From contig JAAOMT010000762.1 of the NCBI GenBank assembly GCA_016748015.1, positions 558,001-622,000 of the forward strand: a stretch of DNA of 64,000 bases, given 5' to 3'. Both the position numbers and the translations under genes were made by a program. Every line of letters begins with the position of its first letter. Within the stretch, counting starts at the first letter, position 1. Shown here piece by piece: positions 30,062 to 61,670 of the stretch. The notes under the pieces were generated by a model. The model did no database searches. It was given only the letters and a program-made list of their open reading frames with translations, and was not told the DNA's origin. The DNA is from Geosiphon pyriformis uo1 (Eukaryota > Fungi > Glomeromycota).

Positions 30062-30905
30062 ATAATTATTAATTATGTAAGTAATCAAGTTAGAGTTTTG
30101 AATTATTCTAAGTTTTAAATTATTATTAATTGTGTAAATAATCAAATCGAAATTTTGAATTGTCCTAAGTTTTAAATTATTATTGATTTTGTGAGTAATT
30201 AAGTTATAGTTTCAAATTGTCTCAAGTTTTAAATTATTATCAATTGTATGAGTAATTAAGTTGAAATTTCGAATTGTCCCAAGTTTTAAATTATTATTGA
30301 TTGTATAAGTAATAAAGTTAAAATTTCGAATTGTTTTAAGTTTTAAATTATTACTGACTTTATAAATAATCAAGTCAAAGTTTTAAATTGTTTTAAGTTC
30401 TAAATTATTATTAATTGAATAAATAATCAAGTCAGAGTTTTGAATTATTTCAAGTTTTAAATTATTATTAATCTTGTAAATAATCAAATCAGAGTTTCAA
30501 ATTGTCTTAAGTTCTAAATTATTATCAATTGTATAAATAATTAAGTCAGAGTTTTGAATTGTTTTAAGTTTTAAATTATTACTAATCTTGTAAATAATCA
30601 AGTTATAGTTTCAAATTGTTCCAAGTTTTAAATTATTATCAATTGTATAAATAATCAAGACAGAATTTTGAATTGTTCCAAGTTCTAAATTATCATTAAT
30701 TGTATGAATAATTAAGTTGGAGTTTCAAATTGTTCCAAGTTTTAAATTATTATTAATTATATAAGTAATTAAGTCAAAGTTTTGAATTGTTTCAAGCTTT
30801 AAATTATTATTAATTGTATGAATAATTAAATCAAAGTTTTAAATTGTTTTAAGTTTTAAATTATTATTAATTATATGAATAATCAAGTCGAATTTTTGGA
30901 TTAGT
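30062..30905. repeat. 57-bp minisatellite, ~15 units, in the 5' region of the pogo-like element
   Basis: Unit ~AATAATCAAGTCAGAGTTTTGAATTGTTCCAAGTTTTAAATTATTATTAATTGTATG. The phase shifts 3 nt per 60-nt line. Confidence 0.95.
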
Positions 30906-30957
30906 TCTATCTAATCAAAGTTTTAATTGTACTTTTCTTTTGCTTTTTAATTTCACC

Positions 30958-32475
30958 ATGTCTAATAGCAAAAAGCATGTTATCTTTTTAGCTTGTATTT
31001 TGCAAAATTATGAGAATGCTACACTTTATAATATGCTTATAGAACTTGATTGATATTATAAAAATGATAAAACCCAATTAAAAACTACAAGGCACTTTAA
31101 GAAAAACAGTTTTCTATACATAAAACAATTTCTTGTTTTGGCTTAAATCAAAAATAAATCAAATTTTCATTCATGAACAAATACAATATATGACTTACCA
31201 ACAAGTGTATACATACAGTATGTAATTTTAACTTTAATAAAGCACTTGTTATTTTTGTTCAAAAGACAGAATTGTATGAAATAATACTTACTGAAAATAT
31301 AATTCGAACTGCTAGCATAAAGTTTTATAATCAATTGAATATTTTAGAAAATAAACATTAAAAGCTATTCAATAGCTGATTTGAAAACTTTAAAGATCAT
31401 GTTGAATTGTATTTACTTTACTTTTATAATAAGTATTATCAGTTAATATTGAGTGTATTGGAGATAAATGAGTGTATATAATGATATTTTTTGCTAATTA
31501 GAAGTTATGCAATATTTTTAATATAAATAAAACAACACTATTTTATATTATACCACTAAATCAAGATTTTACTATAATACTATATCATGATACTAAACAA
31601 TTAAAAGTGTAATTGATACTTGTTTTTATAATTAATAGTAATAAAACTAAATATTTGCTACTATTTATTATTGATCATGCTAAACATTTATGCTGTTTTC
31701 AAAAAATAGAAAAGCAATTTGGTTTTTAATATTATTCAAACACTTATACTTAAATGACTGGTATATTTTTTGATAATAGTTTGTTAATTAAGATTATTAA
31801 CTATATAAAAAAAATCAAAACATATTGTTGTTAGTAAATAATTTTGTTAATTTTAATTATAATATAAAATTTATTATAAATATTTATATAGAACAGTTTG
31901 TATCTAACTTAACAATACATATTTAGTCTATAGATGCTATAATTATTTATTGTTTTAAAACACATTACTGTTACCATTTTTTTATCATTCATTGGATTTT
32001 TTTGATAATAGTATTAATGATATTTATGTAATTAACTAACTTTAAGCAATATGTTTAATTTATAAAACATGTTTTAAATGAAATAATTGCTTATTATTAA
32101 CACAAAGTTGGCATTTTTTTAATCAATACAAATGACAACTTTTAAAATAAAACTGCAAACTTAAAAATAATAATTAATTATAATTAAAAAATAGTATTAA
32201 AAAAGATTAGGAATTGCTACAAAAAGTTTAATTGCATATAACCAAATTATATATACTTATTAATTAAAGAGTTGGTAAATCTATCTAAAAAAAACAATAC
32301 AATTACTTTGAAACATTTAAATAAAAATAAGATTGCAAATTATATTATAACAAATCATAAAACAAAACATAATAGCTCTGATAAAAAACAAAAAATACAG
32401 AAAGTAATAAATATTAAGAATATACTAATTGTTATTACAAATCTTGAACAGTTTATAGAGCAAGAAATTTTATAA
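30958..32475 (+). pseudogene. CENP-B/pogo-type HTH + DDE_1 transposase pseudogene
   Basis: Decayed motifs: NS*FENFKDH (GWL..FK.R), IFNINKTTLFY (IFN.DET.LF), LLLFIIDHAKHLCCF (PL.IIG.AK.PRCF), ILLLVNNF (LLL.DN), HI*SIDAIIIYCFKTHY (QP.D.GII..FK.HY). Confidence 0.85.
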
Positions 32476-35400
32476 TGCAGTTAATAAGCTTGTTTATATT
32501 AAATATATACTTTATAAAAGAATACAAGATAAATAAAAACAAACAATTTTTACAAATTTCTTTAATATTGCATAAATTATTTAAAAATTCTTATAAGAAT
32601 ATGCAAATAAATTTATTTTTTAATAATATTATATTTATTTTTATTATATATATATTATATATACTTAAATCTGAAAAAACTTATAACATGTAATAACTCA
32701 TAGCAATTTGTTTTTATCAAGAATATAAGTTATTTCAGATTTGACTATATAAAAAAAAAATTAAATAAATTCTGTGTTAATTATAAAAAATTTAATATTA
32801 TTATAAAAAAGAATATTTATTTTTTATTACAAATTAATAAAATTTTAAATATTTTAAGTAAATTCAAATGGTTTTTAATCTTAAATTTCATTAGTAGATA
32901 TTAAAAAATAACTATAAATTCCAATGACCAAAAAAAAACCACTTTTACAATTCAAAATAATAATTATAAATTTAATATATTACTATTTAGATTAACTAAT
33001 ATCTTTGTATTATTTTAAAGACTAATAAATATCATCTATTTTAGAATTTTGTAAAAATCAGTCATAATCTACTTAAATAACACAAACATATTTTTTTCAA
33101 CATTTGAGATTTATTTTAAATATTTGTAACAAGTTTTTAAAAATCTTTAAACTATTAAACTGAAATTTAATCCCAAAAAATACTTTTTCAAAAAATCATA
33201 ATTTGTTTTTTTAAGACACATAATTAGAAAAAATAAACTCTTCTATGTTTATAATGTTTTGAATAATAGAGCATATAAGTTATGTTTAAGTAAAAAAATT
33301 TTGAAAAAAGTTGTACATAATAATTAATTAAAAATTTATTATTAACAACAATTATCTGATTTGTTAACATCTGAATTAGAAACACATATATCAATTATAT
33401 CTTCTGACCAAATCTTACAAAACTTGGAACCAATAATAATTATTGAACATTATCTAAAAGACAATTAATTTGATCAATTCTATTTTAGTTATTATTATTA
33501 ATATTTAAAAAAAATTAAAACAATTCCAAAAATAATTAGAAAAATCAAAAACATTAAATTATTAAAAAAATTTTTTAATTTTAATATATAAAAATAAATT
33601 ATTTTAGTTATTTATTTTATTATAAATATATTTAAAAATATTATAAATACTTCACAACTTTTATTTTGGCTACTATAAAAATATAATTTTTCATTAAAAA
33701 TTACTCTTAATAATTTTAAAATATTATATAAAAAAAATTCAGCCATACAAAAAAACAAGTTAAACAAAAATCATTTTAACTTTTATCATAAAAAACAAAA
33801 AAGTATCAACATATTAATTAATAAAATCATAAAAAAATTTTAACTTTTAAAAATTATAATGCCTAAAGAAAAAACAAACTTAATTGCTTTTTTTGCTATA
33901 TATATTTTATAATAGCTGCACAATTAGACTTTCAAACAATTTACAATAAAAAAAACAATAAGAAATTTAATAAAACAAAACTTCAAAAGTTTAAAAAACT
34001 GACTAGAAAAAGCAATTCTAAGCACTATTTTAGAACAATACACTAACTTTATGTACTGTTTTAATATTATTTAAAAGTACTATTAACAAATAAAATAAAT
34101 ATACTTATTTTTAATAAAATTAGAAAACTTACTAACAAAAAATTTCAAGACTTACAAAAATGAATAGTCTTAACAAGTATGCAGAATTTTATGTTAAATA
34201 TTAATATTAAAAAAATACACATTAATTTTAACAGAACTTAATCTTAAAAAAAAAAATATTATTCAAAAAAAATCAAAAAAAAATCAAAAATAATAATATT
34301 ATAATATATTAATCAATCATTAAATAACAATATAAATAATATAAATTAATAAACAAAATTAGAAAATATAACATATATACAATAATATATAAAACATGTA
34401 CAAACATATCCAATTTAATATAATTATAAACAAGTAAGCCAAAAAACACTTACAATTAAATAAAAAATCTAATAGCTTAATAATTACTTATTAATAGGCA
34501 TATATATATATATAATAACTTTTTAATTAGAAAAAAACAGAATAATAAGAAGTTAATTAAATAAAAGAAAAAAAAAAAGTGAAAAAATTAGATTATAATT
34601 CTAAAAAAAGCTGAAAAATATGTTTTTTTAGCTTTAAATTATAATATTTACTGATACTAAGATTAGTAAAATTAAAAATCTTTTTTTTTTATAATCTAAA
34701 CCACAAAAAAGACTGTTAAATCTTTTCTGTTGTTACTTTTTATTATTAAAAACAATAAAATACTTGACACAATAACAGAGCATGGATAAAATTTAAGCTT
34801 GACAAAATTAAAAACATGTTAGAAAAATATACTCTATATATAATTATATAAAATTTACTCATATTAATATCTTGGCCAAAATCAACAATTAATTTAAAAA
34901 TCTGAAACAATTTCTTTATGTTTTGAAAAAATAATCTCTGATCAAAATTATTTTCAAATACTAATTTTGTTAAATTCTGTTTTTTTTTTTAATTTTTTTT
35001 AAATTTATTAAAAATAGAATACTATCTTATTACAAGTAAAAAAATACAGATATTTGATATTAGCATAATATAAAATATATATATTTATAAAAGTCTCAAA
35101 AAAAAACACAATTAAAAGTATAAAGATATAATAAAATTTTTTTTTGGAGAATTAACATAGTAATAGCTATTAACAATAATTTTAATGAGAATATTACACA
35201 ACATATTAAATCAAATAAAAGAATACTTACTAAAAAAAATTATCTAATATTTGCTAAAAGTTAAGAAAAACTTATGGAAATAATTTTCAAGTTCTTAAAT
35301 AAAAAAATAATAATAATCTATCAAACAAAAATCTAGCATAAATTAAGAATAAGCTTTATTAAAATTAATATATTATCTACATATTACAATTAAATAATTT

Positions 35401-38131: not shown

Positions 38132-41100
38132 TGTTACAGATTGGAGTAACAAGTTAACAAATAGCAAAAAATACAGAATTGTAGAGTAATAAAATTAATT
38201 AAAGAGGATTCAACTTTAAAAAGTGAATTAAATAAGTATAGATTTAATGTATAAGATTAATTTTATAAAATATTTTAGTTGCTATTTTTTTCAAAGGATA
38301 ATTAGAGAATCTAAAAATAGAAAAATAGTCTATACTGTCAATAAATAATAATACACTGATATAATTCTATGCCTTATATTAGCACTTTTAGAATTTAATA
38401 TCAAGTATTAGATATACTTTTTAGTTATGTTTTATATAATAATTTTCAAATACTATAATTATATAAATTAGAAAAAAAGTAAGTAAATATTAACAAGTAA
38501 TCTTTTATCCCAAGATATTTAAATATTTGAAAGTAAGAAAAGAGAAATAAGCAATATGAAATGAATTAAGATAATAGTTGTTATTTTATTTCTTTTATTT
38601 CTTATATTTGATTATATTTTTTTATATTTAAAAGACTTATTGCTTATATAGCTATTAAAAGTAATGTTACTCATAAAATATAGGAAGTATATTAGCATAT
38701 AAATTAGCCAATTATAGGTAGACATAGTAAATATGGAATTCCAGGATTCCTTTCAGAAGAATTGCAGGATTCCAGAAATTACAGGATTCTCACATAATAA
38801 ATTGCAAGATTCCAGAATTCCAGGATTCCTCTCAAAGGAATTGCAGAATTTCAGAAATTTTAGGATTCCTGACATAAAGAATTAAGGAATTGAGGAATCT
38901 CAAATACGTATATATAGCAGTAGTATCAGAAGTTAGAAAATTAGTCAATGAAACTTAGAGTTAATTGATTCACAGAGTCAATTAGACTCATAGAATCAAT
39001 TAGACTCGCAAAATCATAATTATTAAAATTAAAAAAAAAAGAGAATCAACACAAAGAATCCTTAACTTAGTTACCACAATTCTCAAATAAATAATTATTT
39101 ATTATATCCAATTTATTTTTACTATCAACATTTTATGTTGATAGTAACTGATACTTAACCATACTAAAACAATAGCTCTTGATCATGGCTATTGATGGAA
39201 TACTAACTTGCAAATTGTCTTGACTTATTTCTTATTTTCTCTTTATCTTTTCTTTATTTTCTTTATTGTCTACTAACTTGATTAAAGGATTTACTCTTGG
39301 AGGACTTACAGCGAAATAAAACTTACTTAAAACAATACTTACTCTTGGAAAACTTATGGAGAAATAAACTTGCTTAAACAATACTTACTCTTGGAGGACT
39401 TATGGAGGAACTGATATCAAGAAACAGCACTAGTATACACTTACAGAAGATATCATATTAGGAGAATCATCAACCATCAAGTTGAGCAAGCCATCAACAA
39501 AACTATGGTTTTAGGAAACTACTGATAAACTGTTACCATTGAATCTTTGTCTATTATACAAAGAACTCAATTGGAAAACCTTCAGATAAAATATCTTCAG
39601 ATTATTATCGTCACCAATCACCTTGAGCACCAAGTTAAGGTTTGTTATTCACTCAACACCTCAAAGAATCACCTATAACAGTGGTTAATGACCAGATTAA
39701 TAACTAGATCAATAATCAAATTAACAGTTAAATTATTAATTAGCTCAATAATTTTCAACTGTAATATTATTTTTTTAAAAAAAATTAAGCTTTAGTAAAA
39801 TCAAGCTATTTATGAAATAATCTTATTAAAAAATTTTGTTTAATTTAAAACTAACTAGTTTAGTAAAGTTTTTTGTAAATAAGGTATATAATACTTGGAA
39901 TAAAATAAGTTTTGTATTCAAGAAACCAAATCTTTGTATAAGAGTTTTGGCTCTTTTGGCAATGGTCAAAATTCTTAGAACATTTAAATATATAATGTCC
40001 AAAATTTTTACTTGTATCTTTAAAGTTGTTTTTTTTATGAGTTTTATGTTTTTTATGATTTTACCAAGATAACCATAGAGTTTTAATTGTCTTTTATATG
40101 ACAAATTTTTTGTCTATAGGTAAAATTTTTTTAATTATTTTTTTAATTATAATAAAAAATAATAGTATGCTTGCTGTTATGCTTTTAAGTATATATTTAT
40201 TCATTTTACTACCAATTTTTTTTCTTCTAATAGTAGTTTTTTTTGGTTTAATAACAGTATTTGTTCTATTGTCATTAGTTATAGTAGTCTGTTTTCTAAT
40301 AATTAAAGTAGTGTTTAAATAATTTTTGATCCAATACTTATAGAAAATATAGAAAGTGTTTTGAATGTTTTAATTCAGAAAATAATTGTTCATATTAATT
40401 GAAGATATTTCTGTTTTAAAAATAGTGTATTTATTTATATCTGATTTTTGCTAATTAATTAAGTTGGTATTATTATAACAGATAATTAATTAGATTATTT
40501 GTAATATTTTTTGAATCATATATTATAAACAAGACAATTATTAAAAATTGTTTCATATTGATCTTATAAGATATAAAAAATATTGTTTAAAACTTTGTTA
40601 ATTAAAAAAAATTTTTTCATTGGCTAAAAAATTTATTATCATAGATATTATCTTTATTTAAATAGTATTCTAAATTACCAATATTTAAAAACAATATTTT
40701 ATAAGTTTTTTTCTTTTTAAGTTTCTCTTAGAACTGTTTTATCTTTTCAAAAACAATTATCTGTGCTTCTATTAATAAATTAAAAATAATATCAAGTCTT
40801 CTTTGCAAAATGTCTTTATAATTTCCTATTGTAATTTTTTTAAATTGTATTGTCTTAATATTAATTTTTATTAATAGTATTATTATTTATTCATAGAACA
40901 AATAAAAAAATTTATAACTTGTTATATTATAATTTACAGTTTTATAAACAAACAAAGCTGAAAACAGTATTTTGTTCCATAAGTTTGTTTTTTTATTGGT
41001 TTTGGCTAAGGTTTTATATAATGTTTTATTAAAATGTTCTATTAAGCCATTTGTTTGAGAATGATAAAAAAAAAAGTTTGTAATGTATTCCCATTTTTCT

Positions 41101-43887: not shown

Positions 43888-45093
43888 TGTTATAGTTGAT
43901 TATTTGGGGTCTCAAATCAAATAACAAACCAGTAATTTGGTGCTAATTTGCTTGATAACATTGGTAATATCTGTAGATTATATGTATCTGAAGGTTTTTG
44001 GATAAAGTTTTTTGTATAATAAACAAAGATTCAAGTGTGTTTTTTTTTAATGATGTTTCTGTGTCAACCTTCAGTATTACCAGACAAAATTAAAGATATT
44101 GCTTAACATGAAATTACCCTTATAATTTTTATCATTAATTAGCATTTCAAATTATTACTTATTACATTTAGCAAAATACCTGAAATTATCATTTAATTAA
44201 TAACCCAATTTGTACATAACACAAATGTAAACTAATTGTGATGATCAATCATACAATACCCCAAACTATGTAACATTCAAGAGCTCACTGAAATTTGTAG
44301 AAATTCACTGAAATAATTGATAGTTCACTGAAATATTTAATAGTTCACAGAAATAATTTGTAGTTTACCAAAATGTATCTTTAGTGCAGCGAAATTGTAG
44401 AAATAAGCAAAGTTCAAGTTCATAGAATAGTGTTACGACAAGTTGTATAAAAGAAGAGCTTCTTTTTTCAAGAAAATGTATCTTACTTCAGATTTAACAA
44501 TTAGAATTATTCTTTACACACAAAAACAAAATAAATATCAAATAATTTGAAAAATCAAATCCTTAATTATTTTCTTTTTGAAATTAACCAATTCCTACTA
44601 AACAGTTTTGAAATTGATTAGCTATCAATTTCAATAAACTGTTAGTGACTTCAGGCCTGGATAGAAAATGTTTTTTTTAACAGAATTCTATTTCTTTTAC
44701 ATTTTTTTTATTTTCTTTCTTTTATTTTCTTATTATAATCATTAGGGTAGCCTACAGACGAGATTCCTGTAAAAAAGTTGACTTTCACAGCAAAGTAACT
44801 ACACATTTTTAGTGAGCTTCCAGATGAGCAATTCCTAGGAAAGAGTTGATGTTTACTACAACATAACTACACAAAGCAACTGGCACAGGATTGGCCATTC
44901 TACTTATAAGCCCAGCAGTTCAAATTATAAGAAATAATTTGAAAATAAATTCAGTTATCGGAGGTTCAAACACTTCTCATAGTTGTGAATTAACAGTATT
45001 ACAACAAACATACAAGAGCTAAGAAGAGACCAAAAACCTCTGGTAACATTTGGTGCTCTTCCATGGAAATAACACAGCAACAACAAATTCAAA

Positions 45094-47500
45094 GTGGCAA
45101 CCACACCAGACACAGCAACTCTAAAGTATTACCAGTCAATTTACACACACTGCAAGCAAAGATTCAACATTCCAGACGGAATTAAAGTTGTCAAGAAATC
45201 AGTATACCAATACATTGAAAACTACATCAACAATTATCTTTTTAGAAACTACAACATTTCAAAAGTTAGAAGCAACCTCTACAATAATTTAGTGCACTAT
45301 TTACAATTGGGAACAGAAGACCTGAACAGTGAAACACTTGCTACCTACTTTCAAGAACTTAATTTTAACATTATTGAGTATTGTGAAGAAAAATACCCAG
45401 TACAGTCTAAATACTCTTTTGACTTTGAATCAGAGACAAAAACAAGCAACAAAGACAAACCAAAATTGTAGCAATACTCAAAAACCACTCCAAATACTCC
45501 AATACTACCAAAAACAACTGCCAAACACTTACAAACACCTAAACAAGGAACCAGTTCAAAACTTCTACTCACTATTACACCTTTTCTAGCTTTACTTGCA
45601 CAAGCAGAAACTCTTAATTTATCTTTAAATCGATTTTCAAGACTAGAAGATTATACATTACTCAGAAGTCCCACCAGGCAACAAGAAACTCTTTAGACTA
45701 GTACTAATCTTCTTGACTATTTAGCAGAAAATACAAGCGAACACTCTGAAACATTAGCCAACAAAGAAAACGTTTCTGAATCCATTAAAGAAGAAGTAGA
45801 ATCTGAAAAAGAAAGTGAATTAATAGATAACAAGAAAGAAGACAAAATGACAGCTTATATTGCAAAAATTCCCGAATTTAATGGAGAAGATATTGAGACC
45901 AGTCCTCAAGAATGGCTTGACCAAGTTACTAAAGCTGGAGATGCAAATGGATGGAATGCTGCCAGAATGTTAAGAACAATTCCCTACTTTCTCAAAAGAA
46001 CAGCAGGCAAATGGTTCGAAAACTTGATCACCCCTTTTAATGACTGGACAGCTTTCAAAACTGCCTTCTTAGAACAATTCACTGATAACAGCACCTCCAT
46101 TACTCTTCAAAATTGTTTTCACAATATCAAACAAGAACCCTCCGAATCTGTCATGACTTATATTGGGAAATTCAACAAGCTTTTCAGACAAATTTGCCAA
46201 CTTGAAACTAATGATTATTATTTCGATGCTCAAATCTTGGATCAATTTATCACTGGTCTAAAGGATAAACTGATTAAAAAAGTTCACCCACATGCCCTAG
46301 AAAATTTAAACTCTGCCATACAGTATGCAAAGAGATACGAAATGGTCATAAAAGAGGCCAATCGCACAAAACTTGTAAACTTAGCCATTGAAGAAACCAG
46401 CTTAGCAGCTGAGGAGAAAATTGACCAACTCATAAAGAAAGTCGAAAACTATTTCACCAACCAACAACAACAGCAACCCCAAAGATATCAACCACCCCAA
46501 AGACAAAATCAAAATACTTTCACATTACCCTCTAATAACCAGTCTCAGAATTACCATTACTGTAAAATTTCTGGCCACTGGAAAAGAGATTGCAGAAAGT
46601 TACAATGAGACCAACAAAATAGAAGTAATCAACGTTACTCTCCACTACAGCAATCTTATTATCAACCACCACCACCAGCTTACTATCTACCAGACCCCAA
46701 TACCAAAATAACTATTATCAGCTCATCTCACAGCCAATCTAACAGCAATACCAACAATTACCCACACTATATTATCAAGTACCTGCTCAAAGATTGATTA
46801 CACAAAATCAATTCACACCACAAAACTGATACCAAGTAAACAACAATAGAATCAGTTCGAACAACCAATTGGTTCTCCAAAATTCCACTCAACCAAAACC
46901 CAACCACTATCACACTCAACCCAGTTATTTAACAATGCCAGAAGAACAGGATTTTTACCATACTGCACTTTCGAAAGGTAGAGCTGCAGCATAACAACAA
47001 AATCTTTCTCATAACCACACCACTATTCTATCAGCCAGAATTGCTGAAAATGCCAATCTCTCTGATATCTTTCCTTTCGAGTTTGAAGCCAATGAGTCAC
47101 CATTCCTGCTCAGCAATGCAGTTACCAATGAACAAAAAGCAATCACTGCTATGTACACTGAAGCAGAAGTCGAAGGAAAGACAATTTGCTTGATCCTAGA
47201 CAGTGGATCTGCCGGAAGCATCATCATCTACCAGTTGATGCAACAGTTAAAGAGAAATGTTGACCAACCAGCTCAGACAATAATTGTCATTGCTGATGAC
47301 ATAAAAAAGACTTCCATAGGAGAAATTGACAATTTTCCATTCACTCTTGATGGAATCACCATTCCAGTCAAAGTTCTTGTAATGAACATGCCCTAGTATC
47401 AAGCCTTTGTCGGAAATGATTGGCTCCAAAAAGCCAATGCAAAATTAGACTGAGAAACCCAAGAATTACAACTCTTCTATTAAAGACAACATCACCGAGT
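45094..47500 (+). pseudogene. Element C gag (N-terminal extension, capsid, decayed CCHC knuckle, Q/P/Y-rich linker) and aspartic protease
   Basis: IPEFNGED..PQEWL..ANGW, IKQEPSESVMTY, YHYCKISGHWKRDC, LILDSGSAGS. Scattered stop codons attributable to transitions. Confidence 0.9.
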
Positions 47501-48479
47501 ACCCACTACTTGTGGTATATTCAACAAACAATCAGAGAAAGCCCCTGTCTTCGAATTTGAAGAGGAGAAAGAAAAGCCTATAGTCAAAACATTTATGGCC
47601 CTTGAATCAACATCTAACTGGGCTGAAGAAACTGAGCAAATGTATTTTGCAACAAAATCATATTTAGAGAAACCAGAAACCCCTGAATAGAACATTCATA
47701 TTCTAAACCAGAACCAAAAAAATGACACTCTTATATTTCACTCAAATGCAAAAACTGTCACAAGAAACTCTCCTCAATGGGAGCCTGCATTTCACCTGAA
47801 GAAGAATATAAAAATCATACTTGTTATTACTGCAAAGCTTGCCACAGAGAATGATGGGGCCATCTAATAAAAAGAAGTGGAAAATGGGACAACACCTCTT
47901 GTTTGACTTGTGAAAATGCACTACCAAAAGAATGCAATTGAATTGATGTAGCAATGAGAGGAGGAGTCTGTGATCAAACCTGTCAATATGTTTTATCAAT
48001 TTCAGAGAAAGTCAAAAAAGGAACCCCTTTTGATGTTGCTTATAACAGCACCCTCAACAAACTGTACCATTACCTTCATGATGCCAAAATGATTTTCGAT
48101 CTAACAGTGGCTTTAATCAACGGAGCCACTCAAGAAAATGTTCGTCAAATGAAAGAATCAGAATACATTGCATACACTTTTGAAATCGCTGGATACAACT
48201 ACAAAGATGAAGTAAAAGTATATTACCAAATTGCCAGTCACATTTACTCGACCAAAGAAGCTCAAGCTCAATGGCTAGAGCAAATGAACATTAAATTGTG
48301 TAAAGAATGCATAATGCCTTGTGATGAGCAATGGTGCCCTGAATGCTATGCTCTTAGCATTTCTCTGCCTAGTGAAAATGATGAAAACAAAATTGAATTT
48401 AGAGAACCTGAGACAACAAAAAAAATTAAAGCAACACCCATCTATTTCATCAAAAATCAGCCTGCCTTACAACTCAAAT

Positions 48480-48890
48480 ACTTCAACAACAACGGACAAA
48501 GAATAAAACCTGAAAAAGCACATGAAATTAATGCCGGATATGACCTAAGATATTCAGACAAGAATACTCTTGTTCTCAAACCCAAATTTCTCACAAAAGT
48601 CAATCTCAAAATTGCCCTCGAAATTCTGCCAGAAGCAATGGTTCAAATCGCCTCCCAGTCTTCTCTGGTAAGCAAAAGAATCAATGTTAGAGTAGGAATA
48701 ATTGATGCTGGATATACTGGTGACATAACAATAATACTCCAAAATGAAACCAATAAACCTTTCAAAATTGAACATGCTGAAAAAATTGCTCAAGCCATCT
48801 ATTTAACATTTCAGGTTTACAATTAATCAATCAAAGAAAACAATTGGAAAAAAGTGAAAGAGGAACCCAAGGTTTTGGTTCAACTGGACA
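48480..48890 (+). pseudogene. Trimeric dUTPase domain within element C pol
   Basis: All five motifs present: AGYDL, IASQSSL (IA.RS.L), GIIDAGYTGDI, EKIAQ, ERGTQGFGSTG. Confidence 0.93.
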
Positions 48891-49319
48891 ATTCACAGTT
48901 CCAGTAAACATAGCTCTTAATGAACAAAGTGAATTTCACCAAATTCTATGACTTCCACAACCAATTACTATTTCACTCTTTGGAGAACACCCTAAAATTT
49001 ACACTTGTGAAAAGCCAATGACCACACAACAAATTTTTGAGTCCAATGAATGAATCTGCTTGGAACATAATATCTCGATCCCAAATATTTACATCCCAGA
49101 AGGAACAAAGAAAGTCTGAGTTACTTTTTACAACCCCAATAATTACCCCATAGTTTTACTAAATAACTTAGAAATTGGAGTTATTTACAGTAATATCTTT
49201 CAACAAGAATTACCCCAAACAGTCCCCAATTTTTCTGAAATTATTGGACATTCACTACCAAAAATCAACCCAAATCTCAGCTCTGAAAACTACCATGTTG
49301 TCATGGAAAAACTATCTCA

Positions 49320-50730
49320 AATCAATATGGGACAACTTAAATCACAACAACAGAGCCAGCTCAAAGAGCTAATTGCAGAATTTGCCGATATTTTTGCCAA
49401 AAACAACAATAACTTAGGAAGAACTGATTTGGTTCAACATCAAATTTACACAGGAGATGCCAAACCAAAATGACAGCAAGCCTACCGAGTTGCTCCAGAA
49501 AGTTACCAATTTATCTGCAAAGAAGTACAACAGATGCTCAACAATGGGCTTATTCAACCATCAATGAGTCCATAGGTCTCACTTATAGTCTTAGTTAAAA
49601 AGAAAAATGGAAAAATACAATTTTGTGTTGATTATCGACAACTCAACAGTGTCACCATTGGAGATGTCTACCCTTTTCCCCAAATTGATGATATGCTAGA
49701 TGCTCTTGGGAAGTCCAAATACTTTTCGACATTAGATTTAGAGAGTGGATACTAGTAAGTTGCCATGGATCCCAAAGATTGTCCCAAAACAGCATTCACC
49801 ACTCAAGGAGAAAATTATGAGTTCAATGTAATGCCTTTTGGATTATGCAATACACCAGCAACATTCCAAAAACTCATGGATGTTGTTTACAAAGGCCTCC
49901 TTTGGAAGTCAGTAGTCGTTTATCTTGACAATACTGATGTTTATTCTCCATTATTCGAATTACACTTAAAACACCTGCAAGAAGTTTTTCAATGATTATG
50001 AAAAGCAGGACTGAAACTCAACATTGAAAAATGCTACTTTGGAAAAACAAGCTTGGCCTTCCTTGGTTATATTATTAGTAAAGATGGAATCAAACCAGAC
50101 TCTAGAAAAATCAGCACTGTTAAAAACTTCAAAACTCCTCAAAACACTACAGAACTAAGAGGATTTATAGGGTTAGCTTCTTACTATTGGAAGTTTATCA
50201 AAGGATTCTCAGAAATTGCAAAACCTCTCAACCAGCTTATTACCAAAAACGTCAAATACAAATGGACTGCTGAACACCAAAACACATTTGAAATCCTCAA
50301 AGAAAAACTAACAACAGCTCTAATTCTCGCCTATCCAGATTTCAGCAACCAATTACAGTTAGCAACAGATGCCTCTTATACCACCTTTAATACCATTCTA
50401 TCACAGTTAAATGACAATGAAAATGAGCAAATAATTGCTTATGCTAGCAGAACATTGAAACCAGCTGAAAAGAACTATCCTGCAACAGAATTAGAAACTG
50501 CAGCAGTAATCTGGGCCCTACATCATTTCAACCTTTATCTCAGACCCAAAGAATTCGATATTATCACTGATAATATTGGACTTAAATGGCTTCAGAACAA
50601 AAACACTTAGCTAAATACAAAACAAATCTGATGGACAGAATTTTTAGCCAACTACCAATATATTGTACACCACAAATCAGGAAAACTCTATACCAATGTT
50701 GATTGTTTCTCAAGAATAAGGCAAGATTAG
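49320..50730 (+). pseudogene. Element C reverse transcriptase and RNase H
   Basis: FCVDYRQLN, FSTLDLESGY, MPFGLCNTPATFQ, VYLDN (YLDD), LATDAS, AYASRTL..AEKNY...ELE. Ends NVDCFSRIRQD* at 50730. Confidence 0.95.
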
Positions 50731-50776
50731 AATAGAAAACCAACACCCATTTAAATTAACAACAAAACAACAAACA

Positions 50777-52162
50777 ATAAACCCCAAAAACTACAACAAT
50801 CTTAAACAATATTTGGAGACATTAACAATTCCAACAGATTGGTCCTCAGATAAAAAACATCCGTTACTACAATAAGCCAAACAATACTTCTTATACAACA
50901 ACATGATTTATTATCAAAACTTCAAAAACCCAGACAATCCACTCAGATTAATACAAGAACATGAAAAAGAAACTATTTTATATAACATGCACTCAGACCT
51001 TTTATCAGCACACCTAGGAAAAGACAGCACCACCCAGAAAACACTAGAATATTACTTTTGGCCTCAAATGAGAAAAGATATTCATGAATACATTAAGTCT
51101 TGTAATAGTTGTCAAAGAAGAGAAGGAACTCACTCTACAGAACCTTTAAACCCAATCAAAGTTGGACAGCCTTTTGACTGAGTTCGTATTGATTTAATCA
51201 GACCACTACCTATCACAAACCAAGAAAACCATTATATTGCAGTAGCTGTAGACTATCTCACCAAATGGCCTAAAGCCAGAGCCATTCAACAAGCAGATAC
51301 AAAATCAGTAGCAAACTTTATCTACGAAAACATTATTTGTAAACATGGATGCCCAATAGAACTTTTATCTGATCAAGGAACACATTTCGTGAACAATTTA
51401 ATCCAGAAAATTTGTGGATGATTTAATGTCAAAAGACTATTATCTTCACCCTACCATCCACAAACAAATAGACTTGTAGAACATTTCAACAGAATATTGT
51501 GTGAATCATTAGCCAAAGTCTCAACCAATTTTGAGCAAGAATAGAATTTCTTTATTCCATCAGTATTACTAGCATATAGAACACTAAAACAAGATACCAC
51601 AAAACACATACCATTTGATTTAACCTATGGAAAGACAGCAATATTACTAATTAGTTTTATAATGGAAACATACACAGTACAACCAATTAATAAAGACAAC
51701 TTTCAAGAAACACTACAATGAAAAGCCTACACTCTACTTAGCACATTGGAAGAAAAACAACAAATAGCAGCCACCCATATTAAACACTTTCAAGCTCAAC
51801 AAAAAGAATAGCATGACAACAAATTGCCTTCAGTTACCAATGAATTTAAAATCAGAAACAAAGTTCTCTTACACAGAACTAAAGCTAAAAAACAATGAAG
51901 TGGAAAATTTGAAAATAAATGGGATGGACCATTCTTTATCCATGAAGTCCTAGACAACAGATCATACAAACTAAGACTTGATGACAAAATCCTAGCAAAA
52001 GTTGCACATGGAGATCATTTGAAACACTATAATTCCAGACACAATCCTGAACCATTAATTCCACAAATTGGTACACATTCCTCTTTAATCAATTCTGAAG
52101 ATATTCCCCGAAATTTAGAACCAATAGTTGTCATTGAACAACCTCTCAACTTGAACACTTAA
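50777..52162 (+). pseudogene. Element C integrase in a separate reading frame (HHCC, DDE core, GPF/SH3-like tail, no chromodomain)
   Basis: MHSDLLSAHLG...SCNSCQ, IDLIRPL, AVDYLTKWP, LSDQGTHF, YHPQTNRLVE, KWDGPF. Frame is +1 relative to RT; start codon ATA inferred from ATG. Confidence 0.9.
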
Positions 52163-52285
52163 TTTAAATTTATTATTATAGTTATCTCCTTATAATTTAG
52201 AAACAATCTCACAAAAACAAAGCAAAAATAACATAAAAACCCATTCACCAAAAATAATTTTCTGTTATTTTTCAAATCTTTTATA

Positions 52286-53005
52286 ATAACTATTCCTCAA
52301 AACATTCAACAATTATCCCAAAAACTAATGTTAATTTTAAAAACAATACCTGAATTATTCATTACTATTACTGGAAACCACATTAATTATACCCAAACAG
52401 AAGTAGTTACAAATTTAGCCCCAAATTCACAAAAATATCACCCATATAAGAAAAACACAAGAAGTTATTCTGGAATTCACCTGCCAGAACTTTTAAAGCT
52501 TGTTTTAAGAGAAAACTTAATGCTCACTCTTATTAGTATTCCACAAAATGCTACTATTCAACAAAAACTTCAACTGTGTCTTAATGAAGAAAACTACAAC
52601 TATACTCTAATATATAGATATTTTTACATTGGAAAAACACTTCACAAATGAAAACGGGAGCTTACAGCAGCAAACCTCACAAAAGAAGCTATTTGGAAAC
52701 AACTCCACAATAAATTCAAGACAACAGCTGGACCTACAAACAGTCATTATAAACTAAGAGCTGCTCTTAGACTTTATGACCTATTCCACACCTGTGAAAA
52801 CGTCTTACAAAACCCAATTTTACAGCCTTTAAAGATTCAATATATTGGAAAGCTCACAGAACTGAAATTTCAACAATTTTCAGACCAAATTTTTTCAATA
52901 ATTTTGGATTATTATCTGGAAATTACAGACAGTACTTGGACTTCGATAGAGCTCAATCTTGAGGAGGAGATTATGTTACCAGATAAAATTAGAGATATTG
53001 CTTAG
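52286..53005 (+). pseudogene. Element C ORF3, ~240 aa protein of unknown function overlapping the PPT and 3' LTR
   Basis: One frame with a single TGA (52649, CGA-derived). Continues KRELTAAN...LRAALRLYDLF...YIGKLTELKFQQF...LNLEEEIMLPDKIRDIA*. Start codon inferred from ATA. Confidence 0.75.
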
Positions 53006-56000
53006 CATGAAATTACTCTTATAATTTTTATCATTAATTAGCATTTCAAATTATCACTTATTATATTTAGCAAAATACCTGAAATTATTATTTAATTTAT
53101 AACCCAATTTGTACATAACACAAATGTAACCTAATTGCAATAATCAATTATGCAATACCCCAAACTATGTAACATTTAAGAGCTTGCCAAAATTTGTAAA
53201 AATTTGCCGAAATAATTGATAGTTTACTGAAATATTTAATAGTTTGCAGAAATAACTTGTAGTTCGCCAAAATGTATCTTTAGTGCAGCAAAATTGTAGA
53301 AAAGAGCAAAGTTCAAGTTCATAGAATAGTGTTACAACAAGTTGTATAAAAGAAGAGCTTCTCTTTTTAAGAAAATGTATCTTACTTCAGATTTAACAAT
53401 TAGAATTATTCTTTACACACAAAAACAAAATAAATATCAAATAATTCGAAAAATCAAATCCTTAATTATTTCCTTTTTGAAATTAACCAATTCTTACTAA
53501 ACAGTTTTGAAATTGATTAGCTACCAATTTCAATAAACTGTTAGTGACTCCAGGCCTGGATAGAAAATGTTTTTTTTGACAGAATTCTATTTCTTTTACA
53601 TTTCTTTTATTGTCTTTCTTTTATTTTCTTATTATAATCATTAGGGTAGCCTATAGACAAGATTTCTGTAGAAGAGTTGACTTTCACAGCAAAGTAACTA
53701 CACATTTTTAGTGAGCTTCTAGACGAGCAATTCCTAGAAAAGAGTTGACGTTTACTACAACATAACTACACAAAGCAACTGGCATGGGATTGGCCATTCT
53801 ACTTATAAGCCCAGCGGTTCAAATTATAAGAAATAATTTGAAAATAAATTCAGTTATTGGTGATTCAAACACTTCCCATAGTTGTGAATTAACAGCATTA
53901 CAACAAACATACAAGAACTAAGAAGAGACCAAAAACCTCCGGTAATATCGGGTTAATATAGTTTGTTGTCTATCACTTCTCAGAATTATAATTCTGTCAA
54001 TTTTTTTCTCAATGTGGTGGCTGGCAATCTTCTGGTAAGCTATCCTCAAATTGAGTGTCTATCCTTATCCCTAGGTCTTTTACCAGTGCTATATCCTGAC
54101 ATCAATAATTCAATACTTAATTTTTAATTAATTAGTATACAATGATAAAAGAAAAAATAAAAGAAAAAAAAGTTAACAAAGAAAAATAAGCCAAGACAAT
54201 TAAGTTAGTATCTTGTCAATAGCCATGATCAAGAATTATTGTTTTAGTGTGGTCAAGTATGTGTTATTATTAACATAAAGTATTAATAGTAGAAAATGAA
54301 TTAAGATAGCAAATAGTTATTTATTGATATTTGTGATTTGGAAGATTGTTTTAAATAAAATCTAAACTGAGAGATCTGTTTTTTCTGCTTCTAATACTAC
54401 TGCTATATATATATATTTGAGATTTCTCAATTCTTTCATTCTTTCTGCCAAGAATTTTAGAATTCCTGGAATTTTGCAATTTCTTGAGAAGAATTCTACA
54501 ATTCTGTAATTCTGTAATTCCTTGTATAAGAATTTTGTAATTTCTGGAATTCTGTAATTTCTCTGAGAAGAATCCTGAAATTCCATATTTTACTACATTT
54601 TACTTCTGATTGACTAATATATACTACTATGATTCTTATCTTTTATGAGTAATATTATTCTCTCTTTTTAATATTGAGCTCCATTGAGATCTCTGAACTC
54701 TCTTAATTCTTTTTTCTTGATTATTTTTTGCACTTTTTTTTCAAGAATTACTTGTGTTATTTTGGTCTGTAATTTTTTAAATTGGACATTGGTCATTTTA
54801 CCCATTTGATTCATAGTAACTGTATCCATTATTGTGTTAAGTAGTATTTCTGGTCAGTCTTAAAATCCAGCATGTAATCAATAGATGATTCTTACTTGTG
54901 TTGTTAGATTGTTTTTTTCCACAAATTGCTCAAGTTATTGCAGTATTGTTGTATCGAATAATTGTTTTGTTTTATCTGTATATAAGTTCTGAATATTCAA
55001 ATATTGTTCCAAATAGAAATAACAAAAGTTTCTTGGAAATTGTTGTATCCATCAATTCCCATGTTTCTATCATCAATTCTTGATATGATATATCTTCTGT
55101 TTGTATTTTTATTGTCTTTTTTACTTTTGTTATTATCTTGTCAATGATGTTTTCTGGTTTTTTTTGTTCTTTATGTTGAAGTCTCTTTTTTGTATTTTTA
55201 TATTGAATAGTTTGTTAGTTAATGATAATTTTCATATTCTGTTGTTAAATCAGTTGGAATAGTTGTTGTACCAATGTGTATATCTTGTTAGTAATTTCCA
55301 TTTTTTTGGTATCTTTTGTCATATATACTGTGTCTTTATATATTCTTTTGGTTGTTTAATTTGATGTGTTTGGTTCAATAATTATTATTGGTTCCAGATC
55401 TTATAGAATTTTATTTGGTTGAACTAGTATTTATTGTACTTCCAGTTGTGAAAAATTATTGATGGATAATAATACTATATGATAATATGGTTTCAGTTAA
55501 TTACCATGTGCTGCTTTGGCTAAAATTTTGTTGTTCCATCTTAATTTATATGTTCTATTTCCAAGAATTTCTTCTATGTAAAATGGTCTGTCTTATTTGG
55601 GATTAAATTTTTCATTTTATTGTTTTTCCACTTTGGTACAATATAAAAGTACTTTGTTTCTAATTCTGAATTTAATTGGTTTATCTGGTAGTTGGTTATT
55701 ATGTCTTTCTTTTTGTTTTTCTTGTGACTTTTAAATATTATTAGCTGCTCTTTACCATTTGTTTTCTAGTGTTTCTATTAAGTCATATGTTTTTCTTAAT
55801 AATGTTTTTTGTAAATTGTCTTCTGTTATTGGTTCAGTTAGATACGTATTGACTTCTATTTCAACTGGTAAGATTATTGTTCTATCATATACTAATTCAA
55901 ATAGTATTGCTTGTGTAGTATCTTGTTTCATTGTTCGATAAGCAAATAATACTAATAATATAAACAAATCCTATTCATCTTAATTTTTTTGACTAATTTT

Positions 56001-59000
56001 GGCAATTGATTTACACAATATTCTATTGAATCTTTTGACTAAGCCATTGGTTTGTGGATAATATAGTGATGATAATAATCTTTTTATTCCAAATCTTTGA
56101 CTTAATTCTGCCAATATTCTATTTACAAAATGAGTTTCTTGGTTGGATAGTAATTCCTTTGGGCATTTATGTCAACAAATCAAATCTTGATAAACAAATT
56201 TGACAACAGATTTTGCATCTGCTCTTTGAATGGTTTTTGCTTTTGGCCACTTAATAAGATAATCCATGGCTACTGCAATATATCTGTTTCCTTTGCTGGT
56301 TATTGTTAATAGTCTAACTAAGTTAATTTCAATGTAATTGAATAGTTGTCCTACTTTAATTGGTCTCAATGGCTCACTGGGTTTTGTTCCTTTTTTTTTT
56401 GACAAGCATCATAATTTTGAACATATTGGATGATATCTGGATATATGAATGGCCAATAGTATTTTTTTCTGGTTCTTTCTATAATTGCTTCTTTATGGAA
56501 ATGTCCTGCTGTTAGATCTGAGTGCATATTAAATAGTATTGTTTCTTTCTCTGGTTTCGTAATTACTCTAAGTAGTTGGTCTGAATTCTTTCTGTTTTTC
56601 CAATATAAGATATTTTGGTAAGTGATAAAATATTTGGATTGTTGTTTTATGTTGTTTCATTTTTTTGGAGATAATTTCTCCTTAAACTGCTGGGTATTAA
56701 TATAATGTTGGAGTTGTTGATATTTTTGTGTATTTATTTTTTTTATATTTTTGGGTTAAAATGTTAGATTTGTCTCATTTGTGACAAACTATTAGTATTT
56801 CTGTTTTTTTTCCCTTTTTGTAATGTACTGTATAATTAAATAGTAAAAGTTCTATTTTCCATCTAGCATGGTAATTGTCTTCAAATTTTTGCTTCTGAAT
56901 TGAAGTTAATCCTTTATAATCAGTGTATATGTTAAATTTCTGACTTAAGTATTTCTTCCATTTCATAACTGCTCAATATATTGCTAAGTGTTCTAGTGCT
57001 GAAGTTTCATAGTTCTTTTTAGCTGAACTTAAGCTACAACTAGCATATACTACTGGGTGTTTTCTTCCATCTGGCTCTTTCTGAAATAATACAGCTCCTA
57101 ATGTTTGACCTAATGTATTGGTTGTGATTATGAATGGCTTGCTATAATCTGGATAGATTAATACTGGAGCTTGAATAAGCTTTCTTCTTAATGTATCAAA
57201 AGCTTTTTGCTGGGTTTTTGTCTATTCATATTTGGTATTCTTTGTTTGGAGCTGGTGTAATAACTGAGCCAGTTTAGAAAAGTCTTTAATGAAACATCAG
57301 TAGTAACCTACAAATTCTAAGAATGCTCATAGTTTAGTTAAGTTAATGGGTACTGGAAAGTTTTTAACTATTTTAATTTTGTCTGGATCCATCTTGATTC
57401 TGTCTTTGCTCATAATATGTCTTAAGAATTTTAATTTTGTTTTGCCAAAGAAGCATTTGGTGGCATTTAACTTTAATTTGGCTCTTCTTAGTCTTTCAAA
57501 TACTTGTTAGAGATGATGTAAATAATCATTAAATGTCTTGGAGAACACATTGGTATTATCTAAGTAAACAACTACTGATTTCCATAATAGTCTAGTATAG
57601 ACAATTTTTATGAGCTGTTAAAATATGGCTGGAGCATTTATTAAGCCAAAAAACATAATTCAAAATTCAAAATTTTTTTTTTGGATTGTAAAAGCCATTT
57701 TTTCCTTATTTTCTGGTTTCATGGCTACTTGCCAGTAATCACTGTTTAAATCTAAAGTTAAAAACCATTTTTTTTTTCAAAAGCATTGAAAAGTTCTTGG
57801 ATCTTTAGAGTTAGATAACTATCTCCTTTTATTACTCTATTAAGTTTTTGGTAATCTACACAAAAGTGGATTTTTCTATTTTTTTTACAGACTAGTACTA
57901 CTGGTAATGACTATGAACTTATTGATAGTTGAATTAATCTATTGTTTAACATCTGATTGATTTCTTGTTAGATGATTTCATGGCTTGCTAATGGTACTTA
58001 ATATGCTCTTTGTTTGATTGGCATAACATCTCCAGTTTTAATTTAATGTTGGATTATGTTAGTTCTGCCAAATTTATTTTTACTGGCAAAGATGTTGTTA
58101 AAGTTGTTGAGTAATATCTTCAGCTGCATATGTTGTAGTAAGTCTAAATTTCTCAAGTTTATCTGTTTTAATTGTTCTAATTAGAGTAAATAGACATTTT
58201 TTTTGTCCATATATTGTTTGTAATATGATGTCTACATATTTACACAGTTGTGGAAAAACTGGAATAGAATTTGGTGGTTGTTCTTTAACTTTAGTGCTTA
58301 AATATTTGATGGTGATTTCTTTTGTTATTTCAATGATATCTTCTGTTATATTGTAAATGGGAATCTTGATGTGTTTAAGACTTTTGGCTGGTATGTAAAA
58401 ATTGGTGAGTTCAACTTTTTCTGATTCACATATTGCAGCTTCTGCTTCAAACATTTGGGCCTGATTCTTTACTTTTTTTTCTATGGCTAACATGTACTAA
58501 TTATATGGCAGAATGGAAATTGATTAACAGGTGGAGATAATTTCTCCCTTGTTAATAACCTTTTCCTCTGCCATATTGACTGGTACATTTATTCTACACA
58601 TGGATTCGAATCTACTTATTTCTCTAGCTGTAATTCCTAATTTTTCTTTGTTTTCTATTGATATTAACTGAGCTATTTTAACCAGAAGTAGGAATATTGT
58701 CTGTGCTATCTTTTTATTTAACTCTATAATATAGGCTTTTTTTAAGTCATTTTGTAGCATTGTAATGATATTTCTTATATATCTTGCATCAATTATTTCT
58801 TTTCTAATGTTAATTCCTTTTTTTGCTAAACTATTTCTGGATGCTAACTGAACCATTGTTGTTGCTGGAATTTTCAGTGCTACTTTTAGATTAATATATA
58901 TACATAAATGTGGTTCTAATTTAATGGTCTTTTTTCCTGAATATCTCAAATCAAACTCTGCATTGATATTATGCACACATTTTGGCATGATACTTTCATT

Positions 59001-61670
59001 ATTATCACTGAATTATTTAAGTTTCTGCTTTTTGGTAAGATCAGAAAGCATGATATATTGTTTGGGGTTTGAATCTAAATTCAAATCATTGTTATTTTCC
59101 TGGCTATTTTAAACAGAACTGAACTTATTGTTTTTATTGTTATCATTGTCAGAGTTTGAATTGGAGTTGAATATTGATTCTAATTCTGATGTGCAGCTGT
59201 TAATTAGTTTTTCTTCCTTTGAGATCATGTAAATCATGTATGGTAGAAGATTGTAAATAAGGTTACACTCATTACAATATTGAAAGTCATATGGAATCAA
59301 ACAGTGGTCACATAATCAGATATTTAATTGTTTTAAACATTACTCTTGTTCTTCCTTAGTGAGTGCTAGATTCTGATAATGTTTGTGGAATTGTTCTGAA
59401 TTCATAGCATCAAAGACAATATTGGAGTTCGAAATCCAATCAAGTTTTATGGGTTCTGGTGGGTTATTTTTTATTTTTCTTATTTCTTCTTTTGATATGT
59501 CTTCAATTTTGGTGAAAGCCATTTGCCAGATTTTATTGTTGTCATGTGGACAACCATTTAAGTGTTTTACTACTCTTTTCTAGACAGCATCTATTGGTGT
59601 TTTTTTGCATACTTAATTACTGATTAGAATTGTGTATTGGCATAATTTGTTGCATATTCCTTCTTTTTCAGGAATGTTATTCCACATTTTTTTATCAAGA
59701 AGAGTTTCTCTACAAGCCAAGTATGGTTTGTTGTTCTATTTTTCTTGTTGTTTAGGTCATTCAAACTATTCAAAGATGTATAAACAACAGTAATATTTTG
59801 TGGTTGTTGGTCAGTCCTCATTATTACTACAACATGTGTCTATTGTTAACAATTTTTTGCCATAATTGACACAAGTTAGCTTGAGTCAATAATAGTTTGG
59901 CTGTGATTAAGTGATAGTGAAGTATGTTGTTGAGTTAAAGGTGGTGGCTTGAGTTTTTTCTTTTCTTTTTTCTTCTTATGTAGGCATTAGTGGTAGATTG
60001 TTGTGGTCAGTATTAGCCCATAAGACTTCATAAGCTTTTTAGATGGGTTTTTTCTCTTTTTTTTCTAATTTTATTAGTGGCTGTTCATTGGTGATGGTTC
60101 TGAAATAATTGTAGGTTGCTGGTACTCAAGTGTGTTAGCCATTCTGGCTGAGTTGTAGTTTCTGAGTATTCCAGTTAAGCACAGCATTAGTCTTGGACAG
60201 CCAGTTATTACCAACTAGTGCTTGGTACTAGATGGCTTCCATAATGAGAACTTTAATTGGTGTGACAATGCCATTGACTTTAAAGAAAAAGTCGTTGATT
60301 TTGCTTATTAGAGTCTTTGTTGCCCTATTGGCAGTAATTATTCATGTACTGGCAGTACAATCAACTTGGTGACCTAATTGATCCATGAATTTTTGAATAA
60401 TGATGCTGCCAGCTGATCTACTGTTTAGAATCAGTTTAATGGGCTGAACATCAACTTTAGCATCTGTATACATTGCTATGATAGGTTTTGATTCTAAAAT
60501 GGCTCTATTGAATAATGACATTTCAACTGGTTTCTTGAGTTCAAAAGAAAAAATGGCAGTAAGTAATTTATTTTCAGTAATAGTAATTGATAATATGTTG
60601 TTGGTAAGTAACTGCTTTTGTTTGGATTCCAGCTTATTGGATGAGGCATTTTTTGGGATAACCAGGAAACTTAAATAGTTTTGGGAATTTGGATTTTGGC
60701 TGTACCCAATTCCCAAACTTTACTGCCATAATCTTGCTGGCTGCTGAGATGAGCTGGGAATTGGCTGATGTATCACCATCACCAATTGCCAGTTTTATTG
60801 AGTGTATGTGATTTTTGGCCTTGGATTTCTGGATATCTGAACTGAATTTTGGGGTGGTATAGTAACAGGTTGTAATTAATAAATTACTTGTGGCTGTGAT
60901 TGATAAATAACTAAAGCTGGGGTTTGATAGATTAGAAGTACATATATTGGTTATTGTGTTATTTGTGGGTAATAGGATTGATATTGATATGATTTAGTTG
61001 ATAGATTGTTGATATAGTTTTGGTTTGAAATCTGCGATTAGGGTTTTGATATTAATTACTCAATTGTTGACTATTAATTCTGGCATAGCAGTCAACCTTA
61101 ATGTGATCTTGTTTACCATAATTGTGGCAAATATGTGTTTTTTGCTGCCACAATAATTATGTTACTGCAGAACATGACTGATTTTGGTGCTGATTAATGG
61201 TTCTAGAATTGTCACGACATTGTGGCAATTAATATATGGCCTAATTATTATTAGCTAAGTACCCTTCTAGTTTTTGATTAATTGAATTACTAAATTGTTT
61301 CAATTTAAAATCCAATTCAGATAATCTATTCATTATTAGATTGATGGCTTGGGCATGGTTTGCTTCGAGTTTGGCAGATTTGAAATCTCATGTATTAGTA
61401 ACTGCATCTTGGAAAGTTTGCAGGTGCATTGGGCATATGCATTGGAGAATGCTACTGCATAGTTCACGAATAAACTGGTTCAGAATCTGTGATGCTGTAA
61501 AGTAATTCACATTAATCACTTGTATTTGACACAAGTTTCTATAAAAGCATCTTAGGTAAGTAGTAACTGCTTTAGTTTCTCTTTGCTTAATAATAGTAAA
61601 GATATTGGCTAAGTGGTTAATACTATTATTGTTGCTAAAATATCTCAAGAACTTCATTTTAAACATGTCA

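Follow-up and report, generated by a model that had tools for sequence, protein, structure and literature searches.

Retroviral ORFs that extend across the PPT and into U3, or that encode an accessory regulator beside the 3' LTR, include HIV nef, MMTV sag and foamy virus bel/tas. LTR retrotransposons are known to carry additional ORFs (aORFs) between pol and the 3' LTR, both sense and antisense (PMC11963269; PMC5408684; PMC9289625), and dUTPase is known in fungal gypsy elements (PMC2864245). The sense aORFs of Ty3/gypsy elements include env-like ones (PMC11963269), while the third ORFs of dUTPase-bearing LTR elements from bdelloid rotifers encode env, a GDSL lipase or a DEDDy exonuclease (PMC5408684). 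The TRP28 ORFs of plant Retand elements are conserved, Pfam-recognised and antisense, lie between pol and the 3' LTR, and have been proposed to encode a DNA-binding regulator (PMC11963269). Two further proteins serve as functional models. VANC, from the Arabidopsis DNA transposon VANDAL, is a family-specific protein that lifts methylation from the element encoding it (PMC6719617), and CERV, a non-env accessory protein of the C. elegans LTR retrotransposon Cer1, is made from a spliced mRNA and was shown to export genomic RNA (PMC10309623).

We analyzed a window of Geosiphon pyriformis DNA, by which we mean the whole 64,000-nt stretch, which is A/T-rich and filled with nested, decayed LTR elements. 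One of these, element C, is a dUTPase-bearing Ty3/gypsy element (44075–53947) with an ORF between integrase and the 3' LTR, here called ORF3 (Table 1). ORF3 represents a family of accessory proteins, real, under selection and apparently undescribed, in fungal Ty3/gypsy elements, extra ORFs as such being known. It has the features of a sense aORF, since it is in sense orientation, lies between pol and the 3' LTR, occurs in many copies and is under selection. It shares slot, orientation, copy number and occurrence in distant families with the Ty3/gypsy aORFs (PMC11963269), but differs in having no membrane segment, no significant family match in Pfam, PHROGs or NCBIfam, a fungal host and a separate integrase before it. 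As in the bdelloid elements (PMC5408684), a non-env third ORF accompanies a dUTPase, although Geosiphon ORF3 shows no enzyme signature or match. TRP28 resembles ORF3 as a conserved accessory ORF in the same interval (PMC11963269), but ORF3 is sense and fungal, and TRP28 was absent from its Pfam scans. Among the titles and abstract openings of papers listed by our literature searches, we found no description of the ORF3 family. Term look-ups in PMC11952901, PMC3248453 and 10.1101/2021.03.30.436303 returned no such ORF from the parts covered, and these families may be present in the TE library of PMC11952901.

Table 1 Coordinates of element C, its ORF3 and the related slots in the window.
Feature	Position	Strand	Remarks
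5' LTR of element C	44075–45048	+	974 nt; 93.5% identical to 3' LTR
gag (Retrotrans_gag), protease, dUTPase, RT and RNase H remnants of element C	45697–50730	+	RNase H frame stops at TAG 50728–50730
Integrase of element C	50777–52162	+	Separate ORF, 46 nt after RNase H stop, other frame; SH3-type domain and short tail, no chromodomain seen
Non-coding A/T-rich spacer, integrase to ORF3	52163–52285	+	Transversions vs C' frequent; no codon periodicity (8/11/10)
ORF3 of element C	52286–53005	+	239 codons and stop; ATA at Met1 position; in-frame TGA 52649–52651 (codon 122); TAG 53003–53005
N-terminal module, residues 7–37	52304–52396	+	Predicted helix and β-hairpin; conserved in all families; pLDDT 55–67
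Basic linker, about residues 38–64	52397–52477	+	Predicted disordered; conserved Pro-Tyr
Helical core (predicted), residues 65–215	52478–52930	+	pLDDT about 80–94 from residue 71
GAGCTC motif, PPT (52961–52969) and spacer	52949–52973	+	Recognisable in 8/8 3' ends compared
3' LTR of element C	52974–53947	+	974 nt; first 32 nt encode ORF3 end
ORF3 remnant of C'	16463–17157	-	Read-through branch; 172 bits
ORF3 remnant of D	54668–55301	-	Ends LNGAQY-stop at PPT; 60 bits
ORF3 remnant of E	33625–34247	+	Frame ends at PPT; 48 bits
C-terminal ORF3 remnant of B	19139–19330	+	Family-G-like; ends FAKAQF-stop
Coding-looking remnant, same slot, of A	25950–26590	+	No detectable ORF3 homology
Coding-looking remnant, same slot, of A'	39750–40300	-	No detectable ORF3 homology

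Element C has the paired LTRs of a Ty3/gypsy element, with one TG end and one CA end intact, and is flanked by TCAG and TCGG, a 4-bp target duplication with one transition. The Pfam domains follow in the order PF03732, PF13650, PF00692, PF17919 and PF17921, with the PPT at 52961, giving the gag-PR-RT-RH-IN-PPT order of the group; the one departure is that integrase is not continuous with pol. Comparison of the two LTRs reveals that 59 of the 64 mismatches are transitions, 12 of these 59 in CpG context, while CG is by far the rarest C dinucleotide remaining in the 5' LTR. LTR divergence thus overstates the insertion age, because changes at CpG are strongly over-represented relative to the CpG that remains. 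The mutation load of element C is methylation-like. By dinucleotide, the C-to-T changes between the LTRs number 27 at CpA, 12 at CpG, 11 at CpT and 8 at CpC. Element C appears to have inserted in the 3' LTR region of element D (43900–54660), forming a nested stack. Its dUTPase lies between protease and RT at 47942–48826 with a cysteine-rich stretch before it, and others are seen in D (58689–59678) and at 28142–28833. Between the 5' LTR, which it directly follows, and the gag domain lies a 132-aa frame (45073–45471), possibly an extended N-terminus of Gag or a further accessory ORF.

The preliminary description, made from the sequence by itself, had reported an ORF of about 240 residues after integrase. 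Its length holds, and position 52286 aligns with Met1 of intact relatives (MTIPQ..., 239 aa), but the frame is not open; with ATA at the start and a TGA at codon 122, this copy is dead. A first protein search returned 204 homologues at E ≤0.01 among 344 candidates. The 120 matches listed were all G. pyriformis gene models, the best 89% identical; 28 of them extend over the full length from Met1, and another 36 begin at Met15 and have 221–225 residues. In a profile search of 1.84 billion representatives we obtained 35 matches, the source of which was established for 21, namely 19 from G. pyriformis and two metagenome proteins, P0164 (234 aa) and P0166 (230 aa); the other 14 are close, C-like sequences. 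Searching with distant members found 63 proteins among 5,472 candidates (61 from G. pyriformis, 2 from ENA), which define two more Geosiphon families, G (about 244 aa) and H. No match was found in phages, viral contigs, metagenome contigs (C profile) or five prokaryote genomes.

Between families ORF3 identity is 21–30%, with homology over the full length. The families share clear profile similarity, the lack of which the preliminary description had named as evidence against it: hhalign gave 95.6% (E 1e-8) for C against G and 99.5% (E 4e-22) for C against the metagenome pair, both full length. The gene order is shared as well. Metagenome contig L004, which carries P0166, holds RT/RNase H, integrase, spacer, an intact ORF3 30% identical to that of C, PPT and LTR-like DNA in this order. 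ORF3 occupies the same slot in five window copies and L004, and all six copies with DNA context sit directly upstream of the PPT/LTR. Among the proteins compared, 31 gene models join a C-terminal integrase piece to an ORF3 piece, which supports the same neighborhood elsewhere in the genome. We set aside ORF3-containing gene models above 428 aa, as they look like spliced chimeras and not like real fusions. A query of the ESM Atlas with P0166 returned first a 98-member eukaryote cluster, most commonly Mucoromycota, at 0.94, with a recognition value below the tool's mark, and we treat this link as a lead only.

We compared the junction upstream of integrase in C, C', D, A, A' and L004. In 6/6 cases the RNase H frame stops and a separate integrase starts 24–66 nt later, with gaps of 0, 1 or 2 modulo 3 (window 50728–50779; L004:772–801), and the elements therefore have three cistrons. 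The integrase start codon is ATG in A and L004 and ATA in C, C', D and A'; that of ORF3 is ATG in D and L004. In gene models that include the integrase end we find PF24626, an SH3 domain, and no chromodomain; nor did Pfam scans of ORF3 itself match one. Integrase ends in a short tail that C, family G and, in part, L004 have in common. This arrangement, in which an integrase outside the polyprotein would need another route into the particle, suits a role for ORF3 as an integrase adaptor that brings the enzyme into the Gag particle or tethers it to chromatin for target choice in place of a chromodomain, and the conserved tail points the same way. We consider such a role, the main rival of the one proposed below, less likely, since A and A' have a split integrase without a detectable ORF3-family member and since between C and L004 identity is far lower for ORF3 (30%) than for integrase (55%). 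The predicted complex of ORF3 with the C-terminal part of integrase scored 0.04 in a run without alignments, which is informative neither way.

Selection on ORF3 was assessed between C and C' from transversions alone; post-insertion transitions swamp ordinary dN/dS in this pair (pS 0.43, pN 0.23). Transversion pN/pS was 0.28 over 225 codons (p 8e-6), an estimate for this single pair rather than family-wide, and 0.285 for the C-terminal part of integrase. The other two sense frames at ORF3 gave 1.0 and 1.8 and the antisense frames 0.74–2.8. By codon position the ORF3 transversions number 17/12/32 (p 0.005), compared to 8/11/10 in the spacer, where an alignment was searched for a shared motif and none was seen. 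ORF3 is under purifying selection, like integrase, and the ratio is far from the value near 1 that would have counted against the preliminary description. These results bear on two further ideas, one of an env-like protein or a movement protein of membranes, the other of a reading frame that stays open solely because cis elements overlap it. The ORF does lie in the env slot and its last ~25 codons overlap cis elements, yet selection is specific to its frame and homology extends over its whole length. Furthermore, the highest 19-residue hydropathy is 0.71–1.14 in 5/5 ORF3 proteins, leaving no hydrophobic stretch, and there are only 1–3 cysteines. Both ideas are already largely refuted and we hold them to be very improbable. 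As judged by hydropathy, the lack of a signal peptide or transmembrane stretch noted at the outset is borne out.

Next to element C, several copies in the window retain an ORF3 remnant. Scored with a multi-family profile, C', D and E reached 172, 60 and 48 bits, where the reversed window as control gave at most 6.1, and hhalign returned 98.9% for D and 98.0% for E, in keeping with the homology first proposed for these copies. Element B, absent from the original list, holds a C-terminal remnant that scored 19.5 bits with the family-G profile against 2.9 for the control. The A and A' slots had been included too, and for these no match above 1.4 bits was found nearby with the profiles, while hhalign gave 0.2%, below shuffled controls, so that their membership of the family is unsupported. 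One frame of the A slot has 5 stops in 230 codons, compared to 25 and 26 in the others, and the differences between A and A' fall 12/12/21 by codon position, a third-position excess. From its sequence, the A/A' slot looks coding and would be a different or far more distant ORF. All quoted motifs were found in place; the [IM]-[GR]-K-[LM]-T-x3-F motif belongs to a domain that C, D and E truly share, but its weaker match in A is unsupported. As had been observed, the LTRs of these elements are unrelated: blastn matched that of C to none of those of D, E and A. The C and C' LTRs are 70% alike.

The PPT of element C, GAGGAGGAG, at 52961–52969, is translated EEE, and the LTR starts at 52974 with the stop codon TAG as LTR nucleotides 30–32, as the preliminary description had it. 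A motif around GAGCTCAA lies upstream of the PPT in 8/8 3' ends (C, C', D, E, B, A, A' and L004) and probably acts in cis, in the priming of the plus strand or in integration. The GAGCTC palindrome sits a few bases upstream of the PPT, whichever frame reads it. In C, C' and both metagenome families the frame reads ELxLEEEIML and runs into the LTR. D, B and family G use another frame, GAQx, and stop at the PPT, and the decayed frame of E ends at the same place. In a tree of the ORF3 core, a 99/95 branch separates the read-through rows from the others; the tree was built from 20 rows chosen from the families with the tails left out, the tool warned of long branches, and the ends compared are those of families other than H. 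A nef-like read-through is thus confined to one branch and is not, as first suggested, a trait of the family. This branch reads the conserved GAGCTC/PPT DNA in a stop-free frame and so runs into U3. The tail is predicted at pLDDT 44–49, outside the folded core, and the PPT/U3 overlap is probably passive, because its residues are dictated by cis-acting DNA. The likeness to nef, sag and bel/tas is one of position only, with an overlap of 32 nt, in one branch and outside the folded core.

The conserved motif before the PPT, as DNA or RNA, raises a role for ORF3 as a Rev- or CERV-like factor that binds element RNA, perhaps at the 3' GAGCTC motif, and acts in export, packaging or translation of the downstream ORFs. 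Three separate ORFs would need post-transcriptional control, the basic linker would suit RNA, and CERV of Cer1 is a precedent (PMC10309623), set beside ORF3 by description and not by sequence. We judge this unlikely, as the motif is recognisable in A and A', which are without a detectable member of this ORF3 family, and Pfam scans of ORF3 matched no RNA-binding family.

We used AlphaFold2 with a 49-row alignment to predict the structure of ORF3 (mean pLDDT 73, pTM 0.61); an earlier model from a shallow alignment had reached pLDDT 43 and its fold search was uninformative. Residues 31–60 carry a net charge of +4 to +7 in 6/6 family representatives, while the whole protein is near neutral, with a pI of 5.8–8.9. 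The conserved core positions are YxYxxIGxxL, GxTN, AxRLYxxF, C, L and G-K-L-T-x3-F. Most conserved columns hold hydrophobic or aromatic residues, Gly or Pro; basic or polar residues occupy three (138, 156 and 162), and no invariant acidic or His/Cys catalytic set is seen. Judged by these alignments, ORF3 is a conserved, selected, soluble protein of about 230–245 residues without a recognisable catalytic site. The small, helical accessory protein proposed earlier, not env-like, agrees with the predicted core and the hydropathy.

Scans of Pfam, PHROGs and NCBIfam gave no significant family match, and hence none to a described env or accessory family; such a match is what the preliminary description had said would go against it. 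PDB sequence searches gave 5 matches at E 0.45–0.89 and then none. Foldseek with the better model found nothing at E ≤0.001 in PDB or BFVD, and VIA structure comparison reached a best Z of 5.2 among 48,161 chains and 4.3 among 987, with the N-terminal module barely covered. The best structural row was the CHD1 C-terminal domain (Z 5.2, RMSD 2.9, 80 aligned), which is below the tool's meaningful level for helical bundles. Four fold searches of the better model thus gave nothing significant, which is not proof of a new fold.

Several weaker candidates were followed. Features resembling DUF1016_N and ParB-HTH clusters (0.86–0.89) are weak leads only. Weak DUF1016_N matches were seen over residues 90–175 (6/47 members, best E 0.015; background in PMC4316617), and this domain, the YhcG N-terminal domain (PF17761), was rejected as unproven. 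The window copy scored 13.5 bits against a 32.8-bit cut-off, and hhalign against a 74-sequence YhcG profile gave 0.75% with a score of 16.4, where the best shuffles reached 18.6. An FtsQ match, at 19.5 bits against a cut-off of 366, was rejected as chance level. A relation to phrog_23683, which matched 31/47 C/C' members (best E 1.4e-4) and 21/49 in the wider alignment, is a weak lead.

A soluble, predicted helical domain with conserved buried residues, a variable surface and fast divergence could be that of a protein that acts on a host RNAi, methylation or restriction factor, or that limits copy number, without binding nucleic acid. The family and fold searches detected no host-like domain or mimicry, and we regard this as quite improbable.

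We propose instead, with a probability of about 0.4, that ORF3 binds nucleic acid and sustains expression of the element that carries it. Nucleic-acid binding had been put forward in the preliminary description, together with integration targeting, integrase packaging, LTR trans-activation and anti-silencing, all of which stay candidate roles here. ORF3 would be translated from its own AUG, by a subgenomic RNA or re-initiation, as we infer from integrase also being a separate ORF. It would enter the nucleus through its basic linker and bind the nucleic acid of its own element, most likely LTR DNA or chromatin. Binding would be family-specific and have a trans-activating or anti-silencing effect, so that the element stays transcribed against host cytosine methylation. 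The protein is soluble and apparently non-enzymatic, has a basic linker and is selected, and its element carries a methylation-like load. In Rhizophagus irregularis, a related fungus, TEs carry CG methylation (10.1101/2021.03.30.436303). The faster divergence of ORF3 than of integrase, in step with unrelated LTRs, is as would be expected of a reader of family-specific LTRs. VANC is a precedent for the mechanism (PMC6719617), by functional analogy and with no homology to ORF3 detected. Against a role in expression stand the near-neutral pI, the failed DUF1016_N lead and the sub-threshold Z of 5.2, and the heavy C-to-T load shows that copies were not protected. A basic linker and fast divergence would suit RNA binders or protein adaptors equally well.

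More tentatively, these elements may form a tricistronic fungal Ty3/gypsy lineage (gag-pol without integrase, integrase, and ORF3), in which ORF3 would have a new fold and would either free its own LTR from methylation, as a first fungal counterpart of VANC, or load the separately made integrase into the particle; its domain would be spread through a larger unannotated Mucoromycota protein set. An anti-silencing or integrase-loading role, if true, would add a new step to the cycle of LTR retrotransposons. LTR elements make up 41.2% of the G. pyriformis genome (PMC11952901), and a gene of this kind, retained by several families, is a direct candidate explanation of their expansion despite heavy C-to-T decay. 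ORF3 also explains some 200 or more G. pyriformis 'hypothetical protein' gene models as transposon parts. The protein is small and soluble and has intact natural copies, and would be amenable to expression, structure solution and assay.

Finally, we observed further repeats in the window. A tandem array at 29947–31044, with a 57-nt period and ~15 copies, lies just after an RT fragment (29552–29644). Tandem repeats of 10–12 nt occur inside LTR-like repeats of several families (13703–13967, 19374–19598 and 26586–26920) and are possible, putative binding arrays. A long inverted repeat within 14633–16470 is made up of a C-type LTR (14633–15583) and the C' 3' LTR in opposite orientation. The window also holds a GC-richer host gene at 3946–8215 on the minus strand, which looks, from its translation by eye, like a Doa4/USP8-type ubiquitin protease.
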